In this document: positions 36,660 to 48,952 of the stretch, piece by piece
Position numbering within the stretch: the first letter of the stretch is position 1
Layout of the letters: each line of letters begins with the position of its first letter
From: a candidate division WWE3 bacterium
Lineage (GTDB): Bacteria; Patescibacteriota; WWE3; UBA101185; UBA10185
Reading direction: 5' to 3'
Assembly (NCBI GenBank): GCA_016182565.1
Contig: JACPGI010000004.1
Coordinates: 110,223 to 174,222, forward strand
DNA: 64,000 nucleotides
Position numbers and translations under genes: made by a program
The notes under the pieces: model-generated
Database searches by the model: none
What the model saw: the letters and a program-made list of their open reading frames with translations, nothing else
Told to the model about the DNA's origin: nothing

Positions 36660-36732
36660 CTGGGTCTATGTTTTTTAAGTATACTTTGGCTGGGCACTTG
36701 GGAACTTGTTGGAACTTTACTACTAGCTAAAA

Positions 36733-37323
36733 CTATCTGATTTTCTGCAAATCCTTTCCATATTTCTGAAATGCAAACTTTTCATAGGTTTTATCTTTCG
36801 GCAACTCTTCAAAATATCTTGTTAAACGAATCTTGGTCATGAAATCTTCTGATGACCTAATGCTTTTAGCTAATTCAGTTCCTACTAATTTGAACAAGTA
36901 ATTAAACGGGACATAGGTAGGTACTAGTATGTTCAGTAAATATCTGACTAATAAAAATAGTATTAATAAAGGAATAGATTTAAGAAAAAGGTATGCAATC
37001 AATACCCCAGTAGATACAGCATTGATATAAACTAACACACCAATATTCGGGGAGGTCATTAGTAATTGCAATAAATGCACTGGTTGAGCAAATTCCGATA
37101 ATTTTGCTATTCTAGCAACGGTTAAAGTAATTCTTTGATATTCAAAAGTTGTATTAAAAATTGAAATATCAAAATAGCTTAAGCAAATCATAACCCAAAG
37201 GGGTATTTCTTTTATATTGGGAAAAAGTACAGTAATTAGGAGTGCTAAACCAAAAGTAAGTATTGTAGCTATATTTGCGAGTATCATATCACTGATTTTA
37301 CTACCTTGAACCAATTCTAGCAC
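36733..37323 (-). CDS. 5-TM membrane protein (hypothetical)
   Basis: hydrophobic helices through residue ~130 then charged C-terminal tail. Confidence 0.45.
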   Translation of the reverse strand: MLELVQGSKISDMILANIATILTFGLALLITVLFPNIKEIPLWVMICLSYFDISIFNTTFEYQRITLTVARIAKLSEFAQPVHLLQLLMTSPNIGVLVYINAVSTGVLIAYLFLKSIPLLILFLLVRYLLNILVPTYVPFNYLFKLVGTELAKSIRSSEDFMTKIRLTRYFEELPKDKTYEKFAFQKYGKDLQKIR

Positions 37324-37326
37324 TAT

Positions 37327-37929
37327 TTAGTACAATTTTTTGTACGTTATTTCTTCTGTGCTAAGCATAAGAAAGATTGCACAGAATGAGTTTTTTGGAA
37401 TAATAATGCTTTTTTTAATGTAGTCGTAATTCACGAATATATTACCTATATCTGTACTATTAGGTTTATTTTTATCATAACTATTCGTAGGTACTACAAT
37501 CAAACTGACTTCTCCTGACCTATATCCTCCCGAAACCTTGTTGATATAAGTAACTAGGTCTTCATTAAATGTACCAAGGTTATGTATAGGAAATTTTTTA
37601 ACCTGAAACGCAAAAGCAGTTGGGTCATGTTTATCAATGGTACCTTTTACTAATCCAAAATCTACAGGTGTATTCTCATTTAGCATTTTTCTAATAATAT
37701 CGTTGGTTTCTTCAGGAGTTGGTTTAAAGTTTCTACTAAGGTTTCTTATATCATTCTTTATCTCAAAAGCTATACAAAAGGGAGAATTATAGCTCTTTTC
37801 TAAATTCCTTTTCATGTGTATGCTTACGGCGAATTCATAATCCTTGGAATTTATACCCTTTCCGTATTTTTCAAGAGCATTTATAAGGGCTTCTTCTGTT
37901 ACTAAAAAAACATTATTTTTATCGTACAT
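37327..37929 (-). CDS. hypothetical protein (first gene of a 3-gene minus-strand cluster)
   Basis: 200-aa ORF, 3-nt gap to downstream membrane protein gene. Confidence 0.45.
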   Translation of the reverse strand: MYDKNNVFLVTEEALINALEKYGKGINSKDYEFAVSIHMKRNLEKSYNSPFCIAFEIKNDIRNLSRNFKPTPEETNDIIRKMLNENTPVDFGLVKGTIDKHDPTAFAFQVKKFPIHNLGTFNEDLVTYINKVSGGYRSGEVSLIVVPTNSYDKNKPNSTDIGNIFVNYDYIKKSIIIPKNSFCAIFLMLSTEEITYKKLY

Positions 37930-38005
37930 AGTAGTATTAACTAATTTAAATAAGTTTACGCTTCATAATGTTTACTGGCTGAAAGTTGGGAACTTGTTTA
38001 TATAT

Positions 38006-38467
38006 TTATAAGTTTGCAATCTTCTTGGTAAACTCAGCTGGATACTTAACTTTAAGTAATTCCGAAGCTTCATTAGGAGTAAACCATGAAAACTCTACAT
38101 GTTCCTCACTTAGCATTATATTGGGGTTTTTCTTAAGTTCGCACAGATATATACCCAGAATTAACCCAATAGTATCAGTTCCTTGGGGTATTCGGATATT
38201 GGATACAACCATATCAAGTTTGGTAAATGATTTAATCTCTGTAATACCTGTTTCCTCTTCAACCTCTCTCTTTAATGTTTCTTCTATGGTACAACCTTTT
38301 TGCACTCTTCCGCCTGGTATATCCCAATAAGCTCCAAGTGAGTGATTCGATAACTTTTCTAAGTTAACCTTAAGTAAAAGTATTTCACCTTTAGAATTTC
38401 TTATTAAAGCTTTTATACCTAAGTGATACGTTTCTTCTTTCATAGTTTTAAAATGCATGAACCTCAA
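38006..38467 (-). CDS. Nudix hydrolase
   Basis: Nudix box 'GGRVQKGCTIEETLKREVEEETGI'. Confidence 0.8.
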   Translation of the reverse strand: MRFMHFKTMKEETYHLGIKALIRNSKGEILLLKVNLEKLSNHSLGAYWDIPGGRVQKGCTIEETLKREVEEETGITEIKSFTKLDMVVSNIRIPQGTDTIGLILGIYLCELKKNPNIMLSEEHVEFSWFTPNEASELLKVKYPAEFTKKIANL

Positions 38468-38996
38468 TTACATGGTCTAAACGTGGAGCTATTTTTGTTC
38501 TCATAAAATCTTTATACAATTGTTCCTCGAACTCCTTAATATAATCTATCTTAAAACCAGCTTTTTCTAAATGTTCCTTTATAGTTTCAGGTGTGTGGAA
38601 ATATCTCACTCCAGTACCAATTATATTCTTGTTTTCGTCTCTGTAGAAAACTTTTGTTAATCTAGTAATAGGGTCATATTCAATATCAGGTTTATTTCTA
38701 TCAACATTTTTCTCTGACCTAACAACAATAAATAAATGACCTGTTGATTTTAAAGATTTTTTAAAATTATTTAAAACATTATCCAATTCTTGAAAACTTA
38801 GATAATGAAGAACTAATCTAGCATAAATATAATCAAAGTAATTAGCTGGATAGGGATACTCTTTTGTTAAATCTTCTATTTTAGTCTCTATTTGTTTATC
38901 TAAACCTAATTCTTTGATGTTTGCGATTGAGAAATCAAGACCTTCTGTATCTATTGTTGTAGCGATTATTTTAGAATTTAAATTAGCTTTCGCCAT
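38448..38996 (-). CDS. SAM-dependent methyltransferase-like protein (N-terminal motif I region very short or truncated)
   Basis: 'KSTGHLFIVVRSE' methyltransferase motif; only ~20 in-frame codons available upstream before a stop. Confidence 0.5.
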   Translation of the reverse strand: MAKANLNSKIIATTIDTEGLDFSIANIKELGLDKQIETKIEDLTKEYPYPANYFDYIYARLVLHYLSFQELDNVLNNFKKSLKSTGHLFIVVRSEKNVDRNKPDIEYDPITRLTKVFYRDENKNIIGTGVRYFHTPETIKEHLEKAGFKIDYIKEFEEQLYKDFMRTKIAPRLDHVIEVHAF

Positions 38997-39236
38997 TCTA
39001 ATCTCTGCAAAACCACCTGAACTATACCAGGACTTAATATATTTAAATCTGTATCTCTAACAAAGAAATTCCATGTTCCTCACTTATTGAAGGTTTTGCA
39101 CCTAACTGTTTTAATTGTTCTTCGATAGTAACCACCATACGCTAATAATATCATAGAAACTTCCCCAACACATAAAAGCAAACAACCACAGCGTAAGCTG
39201 TGATAAAATCCAACCAGTGTTGGGGAGTTTCGGATT

Positions 39237-39980
39237 ATGCAAATCGCTGATATAACAATCATAAGCAGGGGTGAACCACCTGAGCTTATAGAACAACCTA
39301 ATAAAAGCACCATTAGCCTACTTTCAATATTGTTAAATAGTAGGTATTTTAATGATTTTGTAACTTCATTTATTGATAAATATGCTATAGAGCAGGAAGA
39401 TATTAAACCTAACCTTAGCAAAGTTATAAATGACCTAGAAAACTGCTCTAAATACCCTGAAATTAGCACTGTAGTAGATGTTTTGGGGTTATCTAGTGAC
39501 TTTGTACCTGATTTTTACTTATTAACCAAATATAGAGCATTTAGAGATATTGGTAACTACTTTTCTATAAACTATAGAAGCACAGTATGGCATTTAAAGA
39601 TTGATTCAGAGGAAGCGATAAAAGAAAAAAGAGAGATAAGTGGGATTATATTCAAAAACAAAGTATCCAAAAGGGAAATGCTTAATTGGGTAAATGAAAA
39701 TTGGGAATGGGTCGAACCAAACATGGCGGAATTACCTGTAAATCCCTTTGTGATTACTGATTTTAAGGACATAGAACTCGCCAGCGAGATATACGACCTA
39801 AATAAACAAGGTATGAAACCTACACAAATACTTAAAGCTTTAAGTACTAAATACCAAGATAATCAGCAAATATACGATAATCTATCGCTTGAACTTGTTA
39901 AAAACAAACTTAAACGCTTTAGAAATCTACTAAACAAAAGAGAACCTTGGTTTCAGAAAACTGAAATTATATACGAATAG
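39237..39980 (+). CDS. module-associated hypothetical protein X1 (paralog of 45481-46272)
   Basis: N-terminus 'MQIADITIISRGEPPELIEQP' vs 'MGIDEIKILKNLNPIELTPEK'; 'REMLNWVNENWEWVEP' vs 'KQMVLDWVGKHWEETIE'. Confidence 0.65.
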   Translation: MQIADITIISRGEPPELIEQPNKSTISLLSILLNSRYFNDFVTSFIDKYAIEQEDIKPNLSKVINDLENCSKYPEISTVVDVLGLSSDFVPDFYLLTKYRAFRDIGNYFSINYRSTVWHLKIDSEEAIKEKREISGIIFKNKVSKREMLNWVNENWEWVEPNMAELPVNPFVITDFKDIELASEIYDLNKQGMKPTQILKALSTKYQDNQQIYDNLSLELVKNKLKRFRNLLNKREPWFQKTEIIYE

Positions 39981-40043
39981 GGCCACTAAAAAATATTTTA
40001 CTGATACCTAAGCTTTACTGTTTTAGCTTTATTCTCCCTCGTA

Positions 40044-40223
40044 ATGAGGGATTTAATCAAACCCACAACTGAAGATATTGAGCAAATAAAAACCTTTTTT
40101 AAAGAAAGATATGGGGTTTTATTAACTGATGAAGAAGCAAAAGAAGCGTTTATCTCACTTTATTACTTAGGAAAAGCGCTATACAGATATAACAACTTAT
40201 CAGAGAGGATTTTAAATGGTTGA
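40044..40223 (+). CDS. conserved small module protein (59 aa; paralog of 46300-46482); not in supplied ORF track
   Basis: hand translation 'MRDLIKPTTEDIEQIKTFFKERYGVLLTDEEAKEAFISLYYLGKALYRY...' aligns with 'IPTKEELQHLKCFLEAKFGVAFTNSEVLESYYSLTHLGKAIYLF'. Confidence 0.6.
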   Translation: MRDLIKPTTEDIEQIKTFFKERYGVLLTDEEAKEAFISLYYLGKALYRYNNLSERILNG

Positions 40224-41316
40224 AATCCCCTCTTTTTTTGACTTATCTACTCCAATTGACCCCACCGACGAGTTGCGGAAGCAACCGTCGGATACTCCCA
40301 AGGAAGTATTTAATCCAGAAGTAAAAAGTACAATTGAGTATAAGGGTTTTGCTAGAGATACTGAAATAGTCGGAAATCCTGCTTTATTATATTTAACTAA
40401 TTATAGAACATTTCAACAGAAGCTTGATAGCAACCTAAAACAATATATTAAGGAAACAAAATTAGAAATGAGGGGTAAATTATTTGAGTTAAGAAACGCA
40501 CCTCCTCACTTTTGTGGTTTATATAAATCTGCGAAACTCAGTGTTTCTGGAAATAAACTTTTACAAGTAATATTCTCAAAAATACCTTGTAATTCTTGGT
40601 GTTGTCCAGTTTGTAGTATAAGAAAAGCAATAAGATTAAAATACAGGTTAAGAGAGATTATTTTACTAAATGATTTAGAGTATTTTATTACCTTTACTCT
40701 AAATCCCTCTAAAATTCCAAGTGTGTATAAGAATGATACGCACAAGTATATTACAAAACTTTTCAACCATTTTTTAACTGTACTACGAAGAAAAAAGTAT
40801 AAATATTTTCATGAAAATAGTGGTAGGTATTTTTACTTTGATTTAACCAAAGCAAAAGATAAGCTTAAATATGTTTGGGTTATTGAGTTTCAAAAGAAAA
40901 CGCATAACGCACATATGCATATTCTAACCAACCAATATTTACCAGCAGTTATATTACGCAAAATATGGCAAGATGTTGGTGGTGGTACTCAAATGCGTTT
41001 GGAAAAGGTCAAATCTAAAAAAGGTATAAGTAACTACATAACTGACTATTTGGTTAAGGGTATAAAAGATACACCTACAAACTTGAAATTGGGTTATGGT
41101 TTCAAGTATTTTGAGCGTAGATATAGTGTTAGTAACTCATGCACTAAACCTGAAAAGAAAATGAAAGAGTTGTTTAAATTACTACCAAACGAGTTAAAAG
41201 AAAAAGAATTAATGAAGCAAAATTTGGGTTGGATTGTAAAAGAGTTATATAATGCGGATAACGATTATTTCAAAGTTGTATTTGATAGTAATTCTCCTGC
41301 ACCACAAAACTTATGA
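40216..41316 (+). CDS. HUH-superfamily rolling-circle replication initiator (Rep), copy 1
   Basis: motif I 'YFITFTL', motif II 'HNAHMHIL' (HUH), motif III 'YITDYLVK' (catalytic Tyr). Confidence 0.75.
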   Translation: MVEIPSFFDLSTPIDPTDELRKQPSDTPKEVFNPEVKSTIEYKGFARDTEIVGNPALLYLTNYRTFQQKLDSNLKQYIKETKLEMRGKLFELRNAPPHFCGLYKSAKLSVSGNKLLQVIFSKIPCNSWCCPVCSIRKAIRLKYRLREIILLNDLEYFITFTLNPSKIPSVYKNDTHKYITKLFNHFLTVLRRKKYKYFHENSGRYFYFDLTKAKDKLKYVWVIEFQKKTHNAHMHILTNQYLPAVILRKIWQDVGGGTQMRLEKVKSKKGISNYITDYLVKGIKDTPTNLKLGYGFKYFERRYSVSNSCTKPEKKMKELFKLLPNELKEKELMKQNLGWIVKELYNADNDYFKVVFDSNSPAPQNL

Positions 41317-42833
41317 ATACTGATTTAAAATATATTATTTATTGTAGAAAATCCTCGGAAGAAGAAAACCGACAAGCACAATCTCTTGATACTCAAAAAA
41401 CTACACTCTTAAAGTATGCACATGATAATAAACTTGATTTTGTTTGTATTTATGAAGAATCTAAAAGTGCTAAAGATGATAATAACCGAATGTTTTTTGA
41501 TGATATGCTTTCTAAACTTAAATCTGGAGAAGCAAATGCAATATTAGTACAGCATTTGGATAGGTTAAGCAGAAATAGAATTGATACAGGTGAATTAATT
41601 AAGTTATTCCAAGAGGGTAAATTAAAAGAGATTAGAACCCCATATAAAGCTAATAATACGATTTATGATTTGTTTAGTATGGATTACGAGTTTATTAACG
41701 CTATTCATTATTCTGCAAGGTTATCAATTCGAGTTAAAGAAGGTATTGATACAAAATTAAGAAAAGGTGAATTTCCTGGTCCTCCTAAACTTGGTTATAT
41801 AACTGTTAATAAAAAACATACTCCTGACCCAGAAAGAACACCTTTTATCAAAGAAATATTTGATTTATATACTGGTAGCAGAGTTTCTATTGAGATTATT
41901 GCTGATACGCTTTTTGATAAAGGTTTTAGAACTCTAAGCGGTAAAAAAGTATATACCTCTGCAATAGCACGAATACTTCAAGATACCTTTTATACAGGTA
42001 AGTTTTTGTATAAAGGAACTGTTTATCAAGGTATTCATAAACCAATAATATCAGAACAGCAGTTTAAACTTGCTAATGAAATAAGGGTAGGTAAAAGCAA
42101 ACCTCGACCTAAAACTGATTTGGATTTTTTGTATAGAGGTTTTTTAAAATGCAATTATTGTGGTTGTGCTTTAACTCCAACTCTTAAAAAGGGTAAATAT
42201 GTATATTACTTCTGTACCAATGGTAAAAACATGTGTGAACAGCACAAAGATTATCTTGGTGAAGGTGATTTAACCCCTAAAGTAACCAGTATTTTCCAAA
42301 ACTTCATAATTGATAAAGATATGGCGACCAAATCCCTTGAGGTTTACAAGAAACAAACCATACAAGCATACGAAGATAAAGTACAGGTTAAAAAGTCACT
42401 AGAAACCCATGTAGAAGCTTTAAACGATAAGTTAGATAAGCTATTAGATACTTACCTAGAAGAAAAAGTAGATAGCAGTACATACAGCAAGAAACAAACA
42501 AAGATAAAACAGGAAATTAAGCAAATTGAAGATAGAATATCAAAACTTAATAAATCACCAAAAACCACTCTGGAACTTTTGGATAAGTTTAAACAGCAAT
42601 GTTTTTCTCTTGGTGAAGTGTATGAACATGGAGATAAAGAGGTTAAGAAAGATTTGTTAAATTCCGCACTCTGGAACTTTTCTATGCTTAATGGAGAAAT
42701 AGCGTCAGTACAATATAAACTACCTTATAAATACATGAATGAAGCTTCTAAAAGTGGTGATTTTTCAATTTGGCTGGGGAACAGGGATTCGAACCCCAAT
42801 ACCTGGGACCAAAACCCAGAGTCCTACCGTTAG
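41313..42833 (+). CDS. large serine recombinase (resolvase catalytic domain + recombinase domain + zinc ribbon + coiled coil), copy 1
   Basis: 'YIIYCRKSS' catalytic Ser region, 'LDRLSRN', Cys cluster 'CNYCGC...YYFCTNGKNMCEQH'; C-terminus reads through antisense of tRNA-Gln. Confidence 0.85.
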   Translation: MNTDLKYIIYCRKSSEEENRQAQSLDTQKTTLLKYAHDNKLDFVCIYEESKSAKDDNNRMFFDDMLSKLKSGEANAILVQHLDRLSRNRIDTGELIKLFQEGKLKEIRTPYKANNTIYDLFSMDYEFINAIHYSARLSIRVKEGIDTKLRKGEFPGPPKLGYITVNKKHTPDPERTPFIKEIFDLYTGSRVSIEIIADTLFDKGFRTLSGKKVYTSAIARILQDTFYTGKFLYKGTVYQGIHKPIISEQQFKLANEIRVGKSKPRPKTDLDFLYRGFLKCNYCGCALTPTLKKGKYVYYFCTNGKNMCEQHKDYLGEGDLTPKVTSIFQNFIIDKDMATKSLEVYKKQTIQAYEDKVQVKKSLETHVEALNDKLDKLLDTYLEEKVDSSTYSKKQTKIKQEIKQIEDRISKLNKSPKTTLELLDKFKQQCFSLGEVYEHGDKEVKKDLLNSALWNFSMLNGEIASVQYKLPYKYMNEASKSGDFSIWLGNRDSNPNTWDQNPESYR

Positions 42834-42844
42834 ACGATTCCCCA
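42771..42844 (-). tRNA. tRNA-Gln (anticodon UUG), CCA encoded
   Basis: hand-folded cloverleaf: acceptor UGGGGAA/UUCCCCA, anticodon loop UUUUGGU, T-loop UUCGAAU, discriminator G; resembles bacterial tRNA-Gln. Confidence 0.8.
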
Positions 42845-42996: not shown

Positions 42997-43557
42997 TTAG
43001 GGTTGGATTGGAGTTATTTTGAGGCTAGTGCTTTCAACTTCACACTTTGCATCAATCGAAATTGCGACCTTAATCACAATCGGCCAACGCTCCCACATTA
43101 AAGTGGTCTCAAAGTATTGTTGACCATCAGGAAACGTTTTCAGCACAGGCCACCGGGTAACCTCAATAGTATCTTGAGACTTGTACCCGTCTCCTACATG
43201 GTACAAACTTACCCATGCTTTAGGTGCACTTTTACCGCACCATTCGTTGGCATCCTGGTAGTTTCCACCGATATACCACCCCAGAGCATTTTTTGTAGCT
43301 GAATATTGCCTGTGAACCCCATCTGTATCAGAGACCTCAACAAATGGAAGTTCAACTGTACCTTCAACTGCACCAATTATTCCGACTGCATAGGGTATTG
43401 TATTCGGAGTTGGGCTATTGAATGCCTCAGCATAATACCTGTATCTGTCCTCAAGTGTTTGCTGGTCCGGCATCGACAACATCGTGGCAATACATCCCGC
43501 CGCTACTAAAATAAGTACCAACACAGTACCAATCCCTTTCAATACATTTTTATTCAT
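42997..43557 (-). CDS. lipoprotein (hypothetical), GC-elevated
   Basis: lipobox-like 'LVAAGC'; ~43% GC vs ~32% background. Confidence 0.55.
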   Translation of the reverse strand: MNKNVLKGIGTVLVLILVAAGCIATMLSMPDQQTLEDRYRYYAEAFNSPTPNTIPYAVGIIGAVEGTVELPFVEVSDTDGVHRQYSATKNALGWYIGGNYQDANEWCGKSAPKAWVSLYHVGDGYKSQDTIEVTRWPVLKTFPDGQQYFETTLMWERWPIVIKVAISIDAKCEVESTSLKITPIQP

Positions 43558-43758
43558 TGTTCCTCTCCCTTGTTACATCATATTTTGATTTCCGGCGAAT
43601 TATATCTTATAGTATGCCAAATTACAATTATTATAGGTCATTAATAAAATTGTTTAATTTCGGGAAAATTTCTAAACAGGATATTTAATTAATAAAAGTT
43701 GGAGTGAGTATTTGGTGGAGCATTTGGGACTATGTTGGAACTAATTCCCTAGTACTCG

Positions 43759-44259
43759 CTACCCATAAAGTTTAATCATTCTATCAATATTTTCACTTAA
43801 GGTATCTAATTCAACCTCTTTTCTTCTAGTATCAACATTGCTAATATCCCATAAGTTAATAGGTTCATATTTTCCCTCACTTGTTTTAGTGAATTGAGTA
43901 CCATAAATCTGTTGTTTTCCTTGTGCTAACAATACTCTATCTTTTAAGTATGCATAGTCACGTTTATTTACGTCCTCCATATTCTTTTCCATTAATTCTA
44001 AATATTTTTCTTGTAAATTTATATCCGGAGAATGTTGGACTAATTTCCAAGATTGGAATGAACTTTTCTTTCCAACCTTACTTATTGTAGGTAAACCAAA
44101 ATCCTTAAGTACCTCTGTAATAAACTTGGTGCTTTTCTCGTCAATTTCCTTCATTTGTTCAAGAAATTTCTCGTCCTTAGAGTTAATGTAATTAGTTCTA
44201 ATCTTAGTATCTTCTTCAAAGAGGGATTGTAATGTTGAAACTAGGTAATTTATTTTCAT
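43759..44259 (-). CDS. hypothetical protein
   Basis: 166-aa charged helical ORF. Confidence 0.45.
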   Translation of the reverse strand: MKINYLVSTLQSLFEEDTKIRTNYINSKDEKFLEQMKEIDEKSTKFITEVLKDFGLPTISKVGKKSSFQSWKLVQHSPDINLQEKYLELMEKNMEDVNKRDYAYLKDRVLLAQGKQQIYGTQFTKTSEGKYEPINLWDISNVDTRRKEVELDTLSENIDRMIKLYG

Positions 44260-44287
44260 ACAATAAAGTGGAACTCTCGCAAAAAAT

Positions 44288-44722
44288 TTACAAACTCAAA
44301 CGAGAACATACTTCAAGAAATTTACTTTTAATATCCTCAAATGCTAAATGTTTAAGCACTTCCTCTTTTGATAACCACTTCAAATCAACAATTTTTGCTT
44401 GTATTTTTGGGGAAGCAGCTAAATTAAAATTTCCAGCGTAGTAATAGGTTATCCCTTTCTTTCCTGCTCTATCAGGTTTTTCATTACCATAGATAAATTC
44501 ATTAGTAATACCCGTATCCGATAGTTTGTAGTCAGTATTACTTAATCCTAATTCCTCAAAAATTTCTCGTTGCAAACCTGCTTCAATAGTACTATCGTTA
44601 TCTTCTATTCTTCCCCCAACAAAAGTCCAAAATGAATTTTTATGTTGTAACAGCAAATATTCCACCCTTTTATCAGGGTTAATTTTATAGATTATTACAA
44701 CTGCACCTTTTATTAAATCCAT
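44288..44722 (-). CDS. Nudix hydrolase
   Basis: Nudix box 'GGRIEDNDSTIEAGLQREIFEELGL'. Confidence 0.75.
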   Translation of the reverse strand: MDLIKGAVVIIYKINPDKRVEYLLLQHKNSFWTFVGGRIEDNDSTIEAGLQREIFEELGLSNTDYKLSDTGITNEFIYGNEKPDRAGKKGITYYYAGNFNLAASPKIQAKIVDLKWLSKEEVLKHLAFEDIKSKFLEVCSRLSL

Positions 44723-44762
44723 GGTGAGATTATAGCACCAACAAGGTTTTTTCGGATATTAC

Positions 44763-45480
44763 GTATCGGTAGTGGTCACCTCCCACCACTTAAATGGAAT
44801 GACGTCCTCCCCGGATAGCACTATGTTTGTCCGGGGTTTCCTTTGCTCCGCTTCTCATGAGAAGTCGTCAGTAACATCGTAACCTAAATCAGAATCATTT
44901 TGCTTACGTATGTATTTGCGTATCTGATCCTCATTGAGCCCTATTGTAGAGACAAAGTACCCCACACTCCACACACCACTATCACCGTACATCTTATCTA
45001 TAAATTTAAACTTAGTTCTAAGGGTGGAACTTGATCTTGATTTCAACTCACGAACTACGTCGGAGATACAATCAGTCGGAGGAAACTCTATTCTCATGTG
45101 TATATGGTCATTGTCTGTATTGAGTTGAAATATGAACCAGGTGGGGTGTGTGCGCAGTGTTTTGTAAAAGCTTTTGACTAGTTCCAAGCGAACATAGGGC
45201 TTTAGTATCTTCCTACCATACTTTGTTCTCCAAACAATGTGATACTGAGTTTGGTATGTGCTATGACTTAGTTGACGAATCCTCATGATGACAGAATAGC
45301 ACTTCGTGCTATTCCCATTCGTCCATGAACTGCGTTCGCAATTCCTCGACCCTTGCTCACTTGTTCATGGTTTGCTGGTATGGATTAGAAAAAGCACACA
45401 CGTAGTGTGTGCTAAAATCCTCCCACTGTGGTGGGAAGTGATTGGATTTCCACCGAAGCATGGGGTACACTCCAACCACT
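44763..45480 (-). mobile_element. IS200/IS605-family insertion sequence (TnpA only, IS200 group), ~0.72 kb; boundaries approximate
   Basis: Y1 HUH transposase gene flanked by GC-rich subterminal palindromes ('agtggtcacctcccaccact', 'cccactgtggtggg'); inserted 3' of a TTAC; GC well above host. Confidence 0.7.
44855..45286 (-). CDS. tnpA: IS200-type Y1 transposase TnpA
   Basis: 'HIVWRTKYGRKIL', HUH 'HIHM', catalytic Tyr region 'GYFVSTIG'. Confidence 0.85.
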   Translation of the reverse strand: MRIRQLSHSTYQTQYHIVWRTKYGRKILKPYVRLELVKSFYKTLRTHPTWFIFQLNTDNDHIHMRIEFPPTDCISDVVRELKSRSSSTLRTKFKFIDKMYGDSGVWSVGYFVSTIGLNEDQIRKYIRKQNDSDLGYDVTDDFS

Positions 45481-46272
45481 ATGGGGATAGATGAAATAAA
45501 AATTCTTAAAAACTTAAATCCTATTGAACTAACACCTGAAAAAGAAATATCAGAACAAACTTGGATTGCACTAGGTAAGGTTCTTAACGATGATAGAACA
45601 TATGTTTTTATTGAAGATTTTAGAAAATCCTATGGTTTACCTAAAAATGGTTTGGATATAACAAAATTTGTTGGTAAAAACTTCAAAGAATTAGGTTTAG
45701 ATAACTATTTAGGAATGGGTTTATCCGTTATTTCCGCTACTCTTTCAGAACGAACAGGATTAGGTAATGCTTTTAACGACCAATTGTTACTACTCCTGTA
45801 TTTTAATGCTTTCTTAGATTGTAACCATTACAATAAATTACCTAGTTTTGAAATTAATTTTGTTGCAGGTAAAGAACAAATATCAAATGCTTGTTGGAAA
45901 TATCCTCATGAAATAGGTGCTATTTTAATACCTGTTTTTGCTAACAAACAAATGGTGCTTGATTGGGTTGGAAAACATTGGGAAGAAACCATTGAAAAAC
46001 AACTGGATAGCAAAATCTACGATAATCCTTTTGCGGAAACTACTCTTCAGTGGAGTAAAATAGCAACCGAAATAATTTACTACAGAGATAAGGAAAAGAA
46101 ACAATTTAAAGAAATATCTACAATACTTTTTGATAAATATGGCAAAGAATATGCTGTTGTTGCTGATGAAGATTGGGCTCGTGCTATATATCACCAATAT
46201 AAAGAACATTTAAAGTTGTGGGAACAATCAAAGCGAAAGCAAAAATCAGCGAAAACTCTTACTCAAAAATAA
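45481..46272 (+). CDS. module-associated hypothetical protein X2 (paralog of 39237-39980); track start 45442 is a TTG inside the IS end
   Basis: homology of N-terminus beginning at ATG 45481 with X1. Confidence 0.6.
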   Translation: MGIDEIKILKNLNPIELTPEKEISEQTWIALGKVLNDDRTYVFIEDFRKSYGLPKNGLDITKFVGKNFKELGLDNYLGMGLSVISATLSERTGLGNAFNDQLLLLLYFNAFLDCNHYNKLPSFEINFVAGKEQISNACWKYPHEIGAILIPVFANKQMVLDWVGKHWEETIEKQLDSKIYDNPFAETTLQWSKIATEIIYYRDKEKKQFKEISTILFDKYGKEYAVVADEDWARAIYHQYKEHLKLWEQSKRKQKSAKTLTQK

Positions 46273-46299
46273 CCTCCTAAAATCTACGATTTCCAGTAA

Positions 46300-46482
46300 A
46301 TGCTGGAAATCAAAATACCCACAAAAGAAGAATTACAACATTTAAAGTGCTTTTTAGAAGCAAAATTCGGTGTTGCTTTCACCAATAGTGAAGTTTTGGA
46401 AAGTTATTACTCCCTAACACACCTTGGTAAAGCAATATATCTGTTTTGTAAACAACAGGAGGTTAAAAATGAAACCTCTTGA
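46300..46482 (+). CDS. conserved small module protein (60 aa), copy 2
   Basis: paralog of 40044-40223. Confidence 0.6.
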   Translation: MLEIKIPTKEELQHLKCFLEAKFGVAFTNSEVLESYYSLTHLGKAIYLFCKQQEVKNETS

Positions 46483-47422
46483 AACACAAGAAGAAATTGT
46501 TAAATATTTTGGTTCACCACTTGAAGAACCTGAACTTCACACCGAGTTATATTACAAACCAAAAATATCCCAAACTGATATTTTAATAAAAGAAATCCTC
46601 GCCAACAAGCATAGCGACGAAAGTCGCATGCTTTCCCCCTTTACTCTACTAGATAGTACCGTCGTAATTCCTCCAGTTATTGATAAGTTTAAAATTGCTT
46701 ATTACCAAACAACAACGGAATATGGGAATTATGTTGATATTTATATTCATGAAAAACCCATAATTAAAGCAAAAAACCTAAAATCCCGAAATGTACGAGG
46801 AGGTAGGTACAAGGAAAATGAGGAAAAACCAGATAGGGGTAACGAATATCGCAGAAGAAACTCAATCAAAGCATTAAACATGATAAAACAACTAACACTT
46901 CAAAATTTCACTAAAGAAAATGTGAAACTGCTAACCCTTACTTTTGGAGATTGTGCTTTTGATATCAATAATCCAAGGATTTGTGACCCCTTATTTAGTA
47001 TTTTTATGTGTAAATTACGAAAGTTATTTCCTGATTTAAAGTATCTAGGTGTTTTAGAGTTCCAAAAACGAGGTGCTGTTCATTACCATGTTTTGTGTGA
47101 TTTACCCTATATCAAAAAAGAAGAAATAGCAGAACTTTGGGGATATGGTTTTATTGATATTAGAAAACCTGATTATGTTATTGGAACTTACTTGTATAAA
47201 TATCTATCAAAGGATTTAAACGACGAAAAATTAAAAGGTGTTAGGGTATATTTTCACTCTAAAAACCTTGAAAAACCCGTTAATAAAACTGGAGTACCTG
47301 CATTTGATGTAATTTCCAGATTTCAAAATTCAGAAATACACTTTACTAACCAGTATACAAATAAATATAATGGGGGTACTGTAAAATACTTACAGTTTAA
47401 AGTTTCTCCTACCCAAACATAA
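46469..47422 (+). CDS. HUH-superfamily rolling-circle replication initiator (Rep), copy 2
   Basis: motif I 'LLTLTFGD', motif II 'VHYHVLCD', motif III 'YLYKYLSKD'; ATG 46469 preceded by 'aggagg' SD (track gives upstream start 46424). Confidence 0.75.
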   Translation: MKPLETQEEIVKYFGSPLEEPELHTELYYKPKISQTDILIKEILANKHSDESRMLSPFTLLDSTVVIPPVIDKFKIAYYQTTTEYGNYVDIYIHEKPIIKAKNLKSRNVRGGRYKENEEKPDRGNEYRRRNSIKALNMIKQLTLQNFTKENVKLLTLTFGDCAFDINNPRICDPLFSIFMCKLRKLFPDLKYLGVLEFQKRGAVHYHVLCDLPYIKKEEIAELWGYGFIDIRKPDYVIGTYLYKYLSKDLNDEKLKGVRVYFHSKNLEKPVNKTGVPAFDVISRFQNSEIHFTNQYTNKYNGGTVKYLQFKVSPTQT

Positions 47423-47429
47423 AAGATAT

Positions 47430-48890
47430 ATGAATAATTGCTTTATTTATTGCAGAAAATCTACAGATTGTGCTGATAAACAAGAACAATCCCTTGAAAC
47501 CCAAGAGAGAATTTGCTTGGAAACTGCAAAGCGATTTAATCTTAGTGTTGTTGATACCATTCTTGAAGCAAAATCTGCTAAAGATGCTGGAAACCGACCC
47601 AAATTTGATAACTTAATTTATCGCATTCGTAATAAAGAAGCAGATATTATTATTACTTGGGATATTGATAGATTAGCAAGAAACTTAACAGAAGCAGGTT
47701 TATTACAACAACTTTATGAAACTGGATTAATAACAAAAATAATCACTGAACATGATATTTATGCTTCTGATAGGGATTTTATGAATATTGGTCATGAGTT
47801 TGTTGATGCTTCTAATTATTCCCGAAAACTTCGTTCTAAAGTTAAAGATGGTACTGATACCAAACTTAAAAGAGGTGAAATTCCGGGTTCTTCAAAAATT
47901 GGTTACTACATAGTTGATAAGAAAATGAAACCCGACCCAGATAGAGCACCTTTTGTAAAACTTGCTTTTGAAATGTATACAGACGGTAAACACTTAAGAG
48001 AAATAACCAAAACCTTATATGAAATGGGTTTTAGAACCAAAAAGGGTTACAAGGTTTATCTAAACACTATAAACAAAATGCTAAAGCGAATTGATTACAC
48101 TGGTACATTTGAGTACAACAAACAACTATATCAAGGAAGTTACGAACCACTTGTTTCAATGGAATTATTTGACAAGGTTCAAAAACTGATTGTTAAAAAC
48201 AACATTCCAAAATCCCAGAAACACTACTTTCTTTACCGAGGTTTTATTAAATGTGGGCATTGTGGTTGCATGCACACTGCTACAACTAAAAAAGGAAAAT
48301 ATATTTATTACTACTGCACTAATTCCAAAAGAATTTGTAAACAGCACCAAAAATATATTGAGGAACAGGATATGCATGATTTATATAGCAATAAACTTTC
48401 AGAACTCCCAATAGATACCGAGATACTAAATCAATCTTACGAGTTATATGCTAAAAATTACCTACAGCAGTATAAAGAGGTGGAAAATCAGAAAACCATT
48501 GTTAAAAAGCAACTGGTGAGTGTAGAAACCAGTATAAACAGGTTAGTTGATATTTATATTAGGGGAGAAATACAACAGGAGGTTTATTCTCGAAAATACA
48601 AGCAACTGGTTTTAGAAAAAGAAACCCTCCAAAACACACTTATCAAACTGGAAACTCAAAAACCTGAAGAAACCTTGGAACTTATTAAAAAATTCAAAGA
48701 TTATTGTTGTACCTTGCAAAACACCTACTCCAAGGGAAACAATGGGGTGAAAGAAGAAATCTTAAAAGCAGTGTGTTGGAACTTTTCAATCAATAATGGA
48801 AAAATCGCTTCAATACAATACAAAAAACCATTTGATATGATTGCAAAACTACCTAAAAATGCTGATTTTGTTCAATGGTGGGCGGTATAG
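47430..48890 (+). CDS. large serine recombinase, copy 2
   Basis: 'FIYCRKST', 'IDRLARN', zinc ribbon 'CGHCGC...YYYCTNSKRICKQH'; terminal 'QWWAV*' codons overlap antisense of tRNA-Val CCA. Confidence 0.85.
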   Translation: MNNCFIYCRKSTDCADKQEQSLETQERICLETAKRFNLSVVDTILEAKSAKDAGNRPKFDNLIYRIRNKEADIIITWDIDRLARNLTEAGLLQQLYETGLITKIITEHDIYASDRDFMNIGHEFVDASNYSRKLRSKVKDGTDTKLKRGEIPGSSKIGYYIVDKKMKPDPDRAPFVKLAFEMYTDGKHLREITKTLYEMGFRTKKGYKVYLNTINKMLKRIDYTGTFEYNKQLYQGSYEPLVSMELFDKVQKLIVKNNIPKSQKHYFLYRGFIKCGHCGCMHTATTKKGKYIYYYCTNSKRICKQHQKYIEEQDMHDLYSNKLSELPIDTEILNQSYELYAKNYLQQYKEVENQKTIVKKQLVSVETSINRLVDIYIRGEIQQEVYSRKYKQLVLEKETLQNTLIKLETQKPEETLELIKKFKDYCCTLQNTYSKGNNGVKEEILKAVCWNFSINNGKIASIQYKKPFDMIAKLPKNADFVQWWAV

Positions 48891-48952
48891 GGATCGAACC
48901 TATGACCTTTCGGATGTAAACCGAATGCTCTAACCAGCTGAGCTAACCGCCC
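48876..48952 (-). tRNA. tRNA-Val (anticodon UAC), CCA encoded
   Basis: acceptor GGGCGGU/ACCGCCC, D-arm GCUCAGCUGGUUAGAGC, anticodon loop UUUACAU, T-arm AUAGGUUCGAUCCCUAU. Confidence 0.85.

Follow-up and report, generated by a model that had tools for sequence, protein, structure and literature searches.

An IS200-group insertion sequence behind a terminator-like hairpin in a tRNA-integrated element of a candidate division WWE3 bacterium

Bacterial group IIC introns insert just downstream of intrinsic-terminator stem-loops, and what they recognise is the DNA hairpin, not a long sequence. As retroelements that combine a ribozyme with a reverse transcriptase, they have no homology with the insertion sequence (IS) described here, and their likeness to it is functional only. 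Elements of the IS200 group are already known. IS200 itself carries an upstream terminator (nt 12–34) that is internal to the element and identical in all copies, and a stem-loop in its 5′ untranslated region stands next to the start codon (PMC4513863). In IS608, 19 nt separate the target from the hairpin foot at the left end (LE), the element stops 10 nt past the hairpin foot at the right end (RE), and cleavage is guided by base pairing with the four bases that precede each foot on its 5′ side (PMC3201880). An enrichment of terminators upstream of ISs is also on record as a statistical result: a 2026 survey (ISME J) found terminator-like sequences over-represented immediately upstream of ISs, most strongly in IS200/IS605 (PMC13548323). 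Here we describe an IS200-group element in a 64,000-nt stretch of DNA from a candidate division WWE3 bacterium (contig JACPGI010000004.1 of assembly GCA_016182565.1; the whole stretch is called the window below). The element stands directly behind a terminator-like hairpin and T-run of its host DNA, and we compare it with its relatives in genomes and metagenomes and with versions of the host locus that lack it. Coordinates of all features are collected in Table 1.

An earlier interpretation made from the letters of the window (the sequence-only reading) had proposed an IS200-group element with a 143-aa Y1 HUH transposase and no tnpB, and had named the lack of a TnpA family match as a possible refutation. 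The match was found. The protein matches Pfam Y1_Tnp (PF01797, E 3.8e-27) and scores 107 bits on the NCBIfam IS200 equivalog NF033573 (cutoff 55). The motifs DHIHM and GYFVSTIG can be read in the 143-aa open reading frame (ORF; 44855–45286, minus strand), which is full length, and residues H61, H63, Y125, and Q129 are invariant in an alignment of twenty-seven TnpA relatives. An alignment with the solved IS608 TnpA (E 1.6e-14) covers both the HUH motif and the catalytic Tyr, and the solved ISDra2 transposase can be aligned over the same two features. No tnpB or iscB was found in the 591-bp IS, where tnpA is the sole ORF with a family match. Three other ORFs of at least 50 aa touch the IS, all on the plus strand (44934–45128, 45306–45494, and 45442–46272); these are products of mechanical calling, which share sequence with tnpA or the LE or continue into the neighboring gene X2. 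The gene tnpA points away from X2 and towards a NUDIX gene.

The proposed GC-rich segment of about 0.72 kb is indeed G+C-rich, at 42% against 32–34% in the surroundings, but its length is 591 bp. Relatives of TnpA are found alone, in unrelated contexts, across many phyla. The locus is very probably a single, apparently intact copy of an IS of the IS200 group, the tnpA-only branch of the IS200/IS605 family; it spans 44798–45388 and has the window minus strand as its active strand.

The limits of the element come from two kinds of comparison. We compared the contigs of three related copies (L002–L004) with the window DNA, and found the DNA likeness confined to the region from about 44798 to about 45388–45393. 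Read in the tnpA direction, the window and the three relatives start together immediately after a T-run and end together at ...CCCCGG..CCGGGGAGGACGTCATT, where one short contig stops exactly. In the window this right end reads ...CCCCGG/CCGGGG-AGGACGTCATT (44798). Two of the three relatives, L002 and L003, are identical ISs with wholly different hairpins before the T-run. Near-identical copy pairs with different flanks also occur inside single genome bins (L013/L030 and L020/L046), and all three near-identical pairs diverge at the same two ends as the window IS.

Empty sites give the same limits. Homologs of X2 that are 72–90% identical occur on other contigs in the same module, which consists of X, a 60-aa ORF, Rep, and a serine recombinase, without the IS. 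Five such IS-free modules (L085, L087, L093, L095, and L096; 82–90% DNA identity) were compared with the window. In these, CTTCCCACCACTTATAAGGTAAAAAGCACACAC... is unbroken where the window has CCTCCCACCACTTAAATGG, the 591 bp, and then AAAAAGCACACAC...; that is, 44780–44797 is joined to 45389–45480, with 87–104 of 110 nt identical to the rejoined window. Because the IS-free modules carry the flanks joined, the IS is limited to 44798–45388, and because the flanks, once rejoined, give the IS-free module sequence with no repeated bases (±1 nt), there is no target-site duplication. The IS-free junction predicted for the window locus is ...CTTAAATGG/AAAAAGC..., and an empty site or donor joint would read CTTAAATGG followed by AAAAAGCACAC. 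The 92 nt before the X2 ATG (45389–45480) are module sequence and stay attached to X2. Likewise, the palindromes at 44771–44791, the hairpin at 45393–45413, and the arm at 45428–45438 belong to the host module, not to the IS.

The host DNA met by the LE is a terminator-like hairpin (45393–45413, minus strand) with a run of five Ts (45389–45393). An independent consensus scan flagged this hairpin as terminator-like. It is present in every IS-free module; in the six modules compared its pairing is 100%, and four of the nine pairs show compensatory changes. To score other copies we used a detector that requires a stem of 5 bp or more, including no fewer than 3 G–C pairs, a loop of 3–10 nt, and then at least 4 T within 2 nt, sought in a fixed interval relative to the tnpA ATG. 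In the genome set, twenty-eight of the thirty-one copies with a TnpA at least 50% identical have a sense hairpin and T-run upstream of tnpA. The antisense arrangement was found in 13/31 of the same copies, and a sense hairpin and T-run past the RE in 0/23. Random 170-nt windows of the same loci were positive in 6.4% of 3792 cases (binomial p ~1e-30 for 28/31). An independent set from JGI metagenomes gave 14/19 copies at the same identity threshold, and the five copies missed by the detector have imperfect or long-loop hairpins by eye. Across the two sets, forty-two of fifty copies stand behind a hairpin and T-run, and the sequences of these are unrelated. Among distant IS200 relatives (31–47% identical), 6/34 and 1/34 were positive (7/68 overall), and multi-copy distant IS200s in single genomes have plain short targets such as TTTAA.

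In these forty-two copies the T-run abuts the LE directly (0 nt) and stands 0–2 nt after the GC-rich stem. Its length between stem and LE falls within a narrow 4–7 nt, and the orientation of hairpin and T-run is consistently tnpA-sense. A same-strand open frame ends 40–150 nt upstream in twenty of twenty-eight loci, as would be expected if the hairpins are real gene-end terminators. Based on the clade counts against those of the distant relatives, the unrelated hairpins, and the empty sites, we conclude from the sequences compared that landing behind terminators is a property of one TnpA clade and that the hairpin belongs to the target DNA and lies outside the IS.

The two ends of the IS share a layout on the tnpA-sense strand: an A-rich AGGAAA-type motif comes first, and after it a hairpin whose foot is CCCCG...CGGGG. 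No terminal inverted repeats were found at the IS ends; there are subterminal imperfect palindromes instead, which are alike on the top strand. Subterminal palindromes had been proposed as the bounds of the element, and true hairpins do exist at 44809–44836 and 45323–45370, whereas the palindromes at the ends first proposed (AGTGGT..ACCACT at 44771–91 and hairpins at 45393–45441) are part of the host module. RNAalifold supports twelve pairs in the LE hairpin, seven of them compensatory (19 copies), and eight pairs in the RE hairpin, three of them compensatory (21 copies). The window LE stem is a perfect 8 bp and its changes are compensatory. The left-end tip closes with a guide-like AGCAAA, where the family consensus is AGGAAA. 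A hairpin is visible at the place before tnpA in all relatives that corresponds to the second hairpin of the window copy, whose position is like that of the 5′ untranslated stem-loop of IS200 (PMC4513863). The terminal motif of the RE has one exact match in the window and is kept in 21/21 aligned copies, with flanks that diverge directly beyond it. GAAA (CAAA at the window LE) precedes both hairpin feet, and the cleavage sites are T-rich (TTTT and CATT); the sequence is compatible with pairing between guide and cleavage bases of the kind known from IS608. Read on the plus strand, the RE hairpin with TTTCCTTTGC (44809–44845) has a terminator-like score, and antisense transcription that enters the IS from the NUDIX side may also be stopped there.

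Under the IS608 model (PMC3201880), TnpA would excise the top strand as a single-stranded circle and paste it 3′ of a short T-rich cleavage site. This site would be read by pairing with the A-rich guide-like bases beside the LE hairpin, and the predicted circle junction of the window IS is GTCATT/CTAATCC. In this clade the chosen T-run is almost always the T-tract of an intrinsic-terminator-like hairpin, and for that reason each copy ends up behind a host terminator. Such a terminator should shield tnpA from incoming transcription, a place taken in canonical IS200 by the internal terminator. In one related locus, L103 (JGI Ga0194125_10218657), GTCATT stands between a host hairpin and the LE; the RE of the IS ends in these six bases too. 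This GTCATT may be the footprint of an earlier neighboring copy or of an RE–LE junction.

From the clade statistics we lean slightly towards a part for the hairpin beside the T-run in the choice of target. The broader proposal, that the clade (50% or more TnpA identity; found for the most part in genome bins of Patescibacteria) selects intrinsic terminators, that is a GC-rich hairpin and T-tract in single-stranded DNA, as a structural target, we would call evenly balanced. Several points weigh against the overall account of the locus. Only one copy of the window IS is known, and neither a second copy nor a solo end was found in the window. An exact-protein look-up found no identical TnpA on record save a truncated gene call, P0062 (80 aa identical); the DNA of its contig matches the window at 100%, and it therefore gives no second site. 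The read set SRR12113420 contains a contig identical to the window. The closest TnpA relatives found share 75% protein identity, and nothing closer was found in the protein collection and JGI metagenomes, the same locus aside. (In the JGI metagenomes, an exact 23-mer of the window LE had 0 matches and a protein-based scan returned nothing above 64% TnpA identity.) The LE foot in the window copy is CCATG/CATGG, against CCCCG/CGGGG in 17–19 of 19 aligned relatives and in its own RE, and mobility may have been lost. The guide pairing is carried over from IS608, and nothing informative was seen among the copies by way of guide–target co-variation. The window target hairpin has no preceding same-strand gene. 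Finally, selection after insertion could also yield the association with terminators.

If selection is the cause, the ends would be the same and insertion would take place 3′ of any TTTT, with only the copies behind terminators persisting, neutral and shielded from read-through. We regard this as quite possible, if somewhat short of probable. IS608-type targets are merely 4–5 nt long (PMC3201880), and the 2026 survey, which sees terminator-like enrichment upstream of several IS families, reads it as limiting transposase expression (PMC13548323). Yet TTTT is very common in the intergenic DNA of these A+T-rich genomes, and 42/50 copies are nevertheless behind a stem and T-run, while all five copies of the second set that the detector missed have hairpins as well when inspected by eye. 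The consistent tnpA-sense orientation also speaks against post-insertion selection, and the narrow span of T-run lengths suggests a distance measured from the stem. Under either targeting or selective survival, tnpA would be insulated from upstream transcription.

We think it unlikely that the window copy is an immobile relic, with its ORF still open and transposition lost through drift of the LE hairpin. A relic would fit the single copy, the off-consensus LE foot, and the AGCAAA found in place of AGGAAA. The ORF, however, retains its full length and every invariant residue, the two termini are likewise intact, the compensatory changes that leave a perfect LE stem point to continued constraint, and the contrast in G+C content with the host suggests a recent arrival. 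It is hardly conceivable that tnpA is instead an HUH gene native to the integrative module, such as a second nickase alongside Rep: the module does have an HUH Rep already (PF23343) and tnpA sits in its structured control region, but five IS-free module versions cleanly without tnpA refute this, and the G+C content unlike the module's and the solitary relatives in unrelated contexts in many phyla agree.

The limits first proposed for the IS fare no better. The sequence-only reading had placed it at 44762–45480 on the plus strand, 3′ of a TTAC, with a leader ‘tttcggat(t)’ cut from the X2 ATG, which implies an IS-free allele of ...tttcggatattac/ATGGGG.... It drew on features that are present: TTAC at 44759–62, TTTCGGAT at 44750 and directly before the ATG of X1 (the X gene of module 1) at 39228, and palindromes near both proposed ends. 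We give it almost no chance, since 44780–97 and 45389–45480 are one continuous conserved sequence in the IS-free modules, which refutes it. The likeness to the three related copies runs out near 44798 and near 45388–45392, with nothing in common beyond 44798 and 45388, and the empty sites agree. The LE and RE hairpins and the AGGAAA motifs are on the minus strand. The TTAC is 36 nt beyond the RE, on the other strand and at the wrong end, and on the opposite side 92 nt of module sequence lie between the IS and X2. The supposed shared leader ‘tttcggat’ lies, with the TTAC, 36–48 nt outside the IS in variable sequence. Reconstructing a leader also fails: X1 and X2 are only 26% identical, and TTTCGGAT is on opposite sides of the conserved structure, to the left of the conserved block in module 2, where the sequence is variable, and to the right in module 1. 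What remains of the proposal is that an insertion upstream of X2 split a conserved element; this is an inverted repeat, and no leader was cut from the X2 ATG.

Table 1. Features of the insertion sequence, its target, and the surrounding integrative elements (window coordinates).
Feature	Position	Strand	Details
IS200-group insertion sequence, 591 bp (±1 nt each end), 42% G+C	44798..45388	− (active/top strand = window minus)	Limits from homology, empty sites, and copy pairs
tnpA, 143 aa, Y1/HUH transposase	44855..45286	−	HUH = H61/H63; catalytic Tyr = Y125
Target, outside the IS: terminator-like hairpin AGCACACAC-TAC-GTGTGTGCT, then T5	45389..45413	−	LE follows last T
Left-end tip CTAATCCATACCAGCAAA	45371..45388	−	18 nt between target T-run and LE hairpin foot
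LE subterminal hairpin CCATGAAC...GTTCATGG	45323..45370	−	Family consensus CCCCGxxx...xxxCGGGG
Second hairpin GAATAGCAC-GAA-GTGCTATTC	45294..45314	−	9 bp, 100% complementary; ends 7 nt before tnpA ATG
RE subterminal hairpin CCCCGGA...TCCGGGG	44809..44836	−	AGGAAA 5′ on top strand (44837–44842)
RE terminal motif GGAGGACGTCATT	44798..44810	−	IS end 11 nt past hairpin foot
Left arm CCTCCCACCAC of host inverted repeat	44779..44789	+	
Right arm GTGGTGGGAAG of host inverted repeat	45428..45438	+	
NUDIX cargo gene	44288..44722	−	Same orientation as tnpA; start 75 nt past IS right end
X2 gene, 263 aa	45481..46272	+	92-nt conserved upstream region 45389–45480 intact
Host integrative element 2, holds the IS, 5.2 kb	43713..48882	+	Left TGGTGGA + conserved arm CATTTGGGACTATGTTGGAAC; right TGGTGGG = tRNA-Val 3′ end
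Integrative element 1	36687–42779		Ends in tRNA-Gln; direct repeat TGGCTGGGC/TGGCTGGGG

The IS occupies the divergent intergenic region of integrative element 2, between the NUDIX gene (minus strand) and X2 (plus strand). The inverted repeat that it splits has 11-nt arms that enclose the target hairpin, with a helix that is 95% paired and shows one compensatory change, and the IS parts the left arm (44779–89) from the hairpin and right arm (45393–45438). The arms of this structure upstream of X, which flank the minus-strand terminator-like hairpin, look like the 3′ end of a tRNA (CCCACCA, or CCCCAAC in the case of module 1). The counterpart in module 1 lies at 39160–39228, and the region folds with a z-score of −6. 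The structure may serve as an origin or as a site for the recombinase, or it may insulate against transcription that reads through from the tRNA promoter. An alternative hairpin, CCTCCCAC/GTGGGAAG (45419–45438), had no compensatory support.

Elements 1 and 2 are about 0.9 kb apart, with tRNA-Gln and a 186-aa ORF between them. This ORF (42997–43557, minus strand, ~45% G+C), placed after tRNA-Gln and before element 2 begins at its left junction, had no Pfam or NCBIfam match, and X2 had no family match. Each element consists of minus-strand cargo, the structured region, X, an ORF of about 60 aa, an HUH Rep (PF23343), and a large serine recombinase. The conserved left-end arm CATTTGGGACTATGTTGGAAC occurs at 43721, after TGGTGGA, and at 36695, after TGGCTGGGC. 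An internal TGGTGGG at 45429 was considered as the left junction of element 2 and rejected, since it is the junction at 43713 that has the conserved left-end arm.

L087, L089, and L091 share a 4.67-kb version of the module at 100% identity, each time beside a different tRNA gene and between direct repeats of TGGTGGG (tRNA 3′ end CCCACCA). Because this identical relative adjoins three different tRNA genes, the recombinase seems to use the generic tRNA end CCCACCA and not one specific tRNA. In both elements the serine recombinase ORF crosses the right junction and runs antisense into the tRNA gene (41313–42833 into 42771–42844, and 47430–48890 into 48876–48952), as it does in L087 (6678–8216) and L093 (6259–7818). 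Its C-terminus and length (486–519 aa) therefore vary with the integration site.

The motif TTTCGGAT occurs at eight sites in the window against 1.8 expected, including 39228, 44750, and 48908, and one site falls within the tRNA-Val anticodon stem. The eight sites showed no context in common. We considered TTTCGGAT as a shared att core, given its presence in the tRNA-Val anticodon stem, and rejected it because the junction repeat is TGGTGGG/TGGTGGA, as seen from the one element that occurs in three tRNA genes.

A TGnTATAAT-like box stands 6 nt before the ATG of both the NUDIX gene (44722–44741, minus strand; GGTGCTATAATCTCACCATG) and tnpA (45284–45302, minus strand; GTGCTATTCTGTCATCATG), and neither gene has a visible Shine-Dalgarno sequence, which suggests that both mRNAs could be leaderless. 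The tnpA box is conserved in the IS clade (GTGCTAnGCTGTTAGCATG). The sequence-only reading had raised a possible silencing or re-driving of module 2. A consensus scan found no sigma-70-like promoter in 44250–45600, which does not settle the promoters of X2 and tnpA; the only −10-like candidates by eye are TGCTAAAAT (45410–18) and TGCTATTCT before tnpA.

The annotation of the locus changes in three respects. The IS is 591 bp, not 720 bp; it lies on the opposite strand; and the hairpins and 92 nt before X2 belong to a tRNA-integrated element whose conserved control region is split by the IS. What is added to the known association is proof at the sequence level that the terminator, in one clade, lies outside the element and is part of its target. 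That one IS200 clade lands directly behind host terminators gives a mechanistic account of part of the bulk association reported in 2026. If structural targeting is true, every new copy would gain a host terminator as its upstream insulator, in replacement of the one built into canonical IS200, and hairpin-dependent target choice would be added to the 4–5-nt guide rule of the family.

Among known systems, IS200 (Salmonella and E. coli) and IS1541 (Yersinia) are like the window element in their size of about 0.6–0.7 kb and their single Y1/HUH tnpA, and they too have no terminal inverted repeats and no target duplication. IS200 also has a terminator hairpin upstream of tnpA and a stem-loop just before the start codon (PMC4513863). 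Its terminator, however, is internal, whereas the one here is external, differs from copy to copy, and is present in the empty site. IS200 measures 707 bp against 591 bp here, and the two TnpA proteins were compared through the family model.

IS608 shares the subterminal hairpins on one strand, with four guide-like bases 5′ of each foot, and the distances are alike: the 18 nt at the LE of the window IS compare with 19 nt in IS608, and the 11 nt at its RE with 10 nt (PMC3201880). Unlike the element described here, IS608 has a tnpB. Its target is TTAC, where ours is a T-run behind a hairpin, and its right end is TCAA, where ours is ...TCATT.

The 2026 survey (PMC13548323) describes the same association, a hairpin and T-track upstream of the transposase and in the transposase orientation. 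It does so as a bulk statistic across families, and explains the IS200/IS605 case by the internal IS200 terminator. Here, by contrast, empty sites and identical copies with different hairpins show that the terminator is target DNA, and the association belongs to one TnpA clade only.

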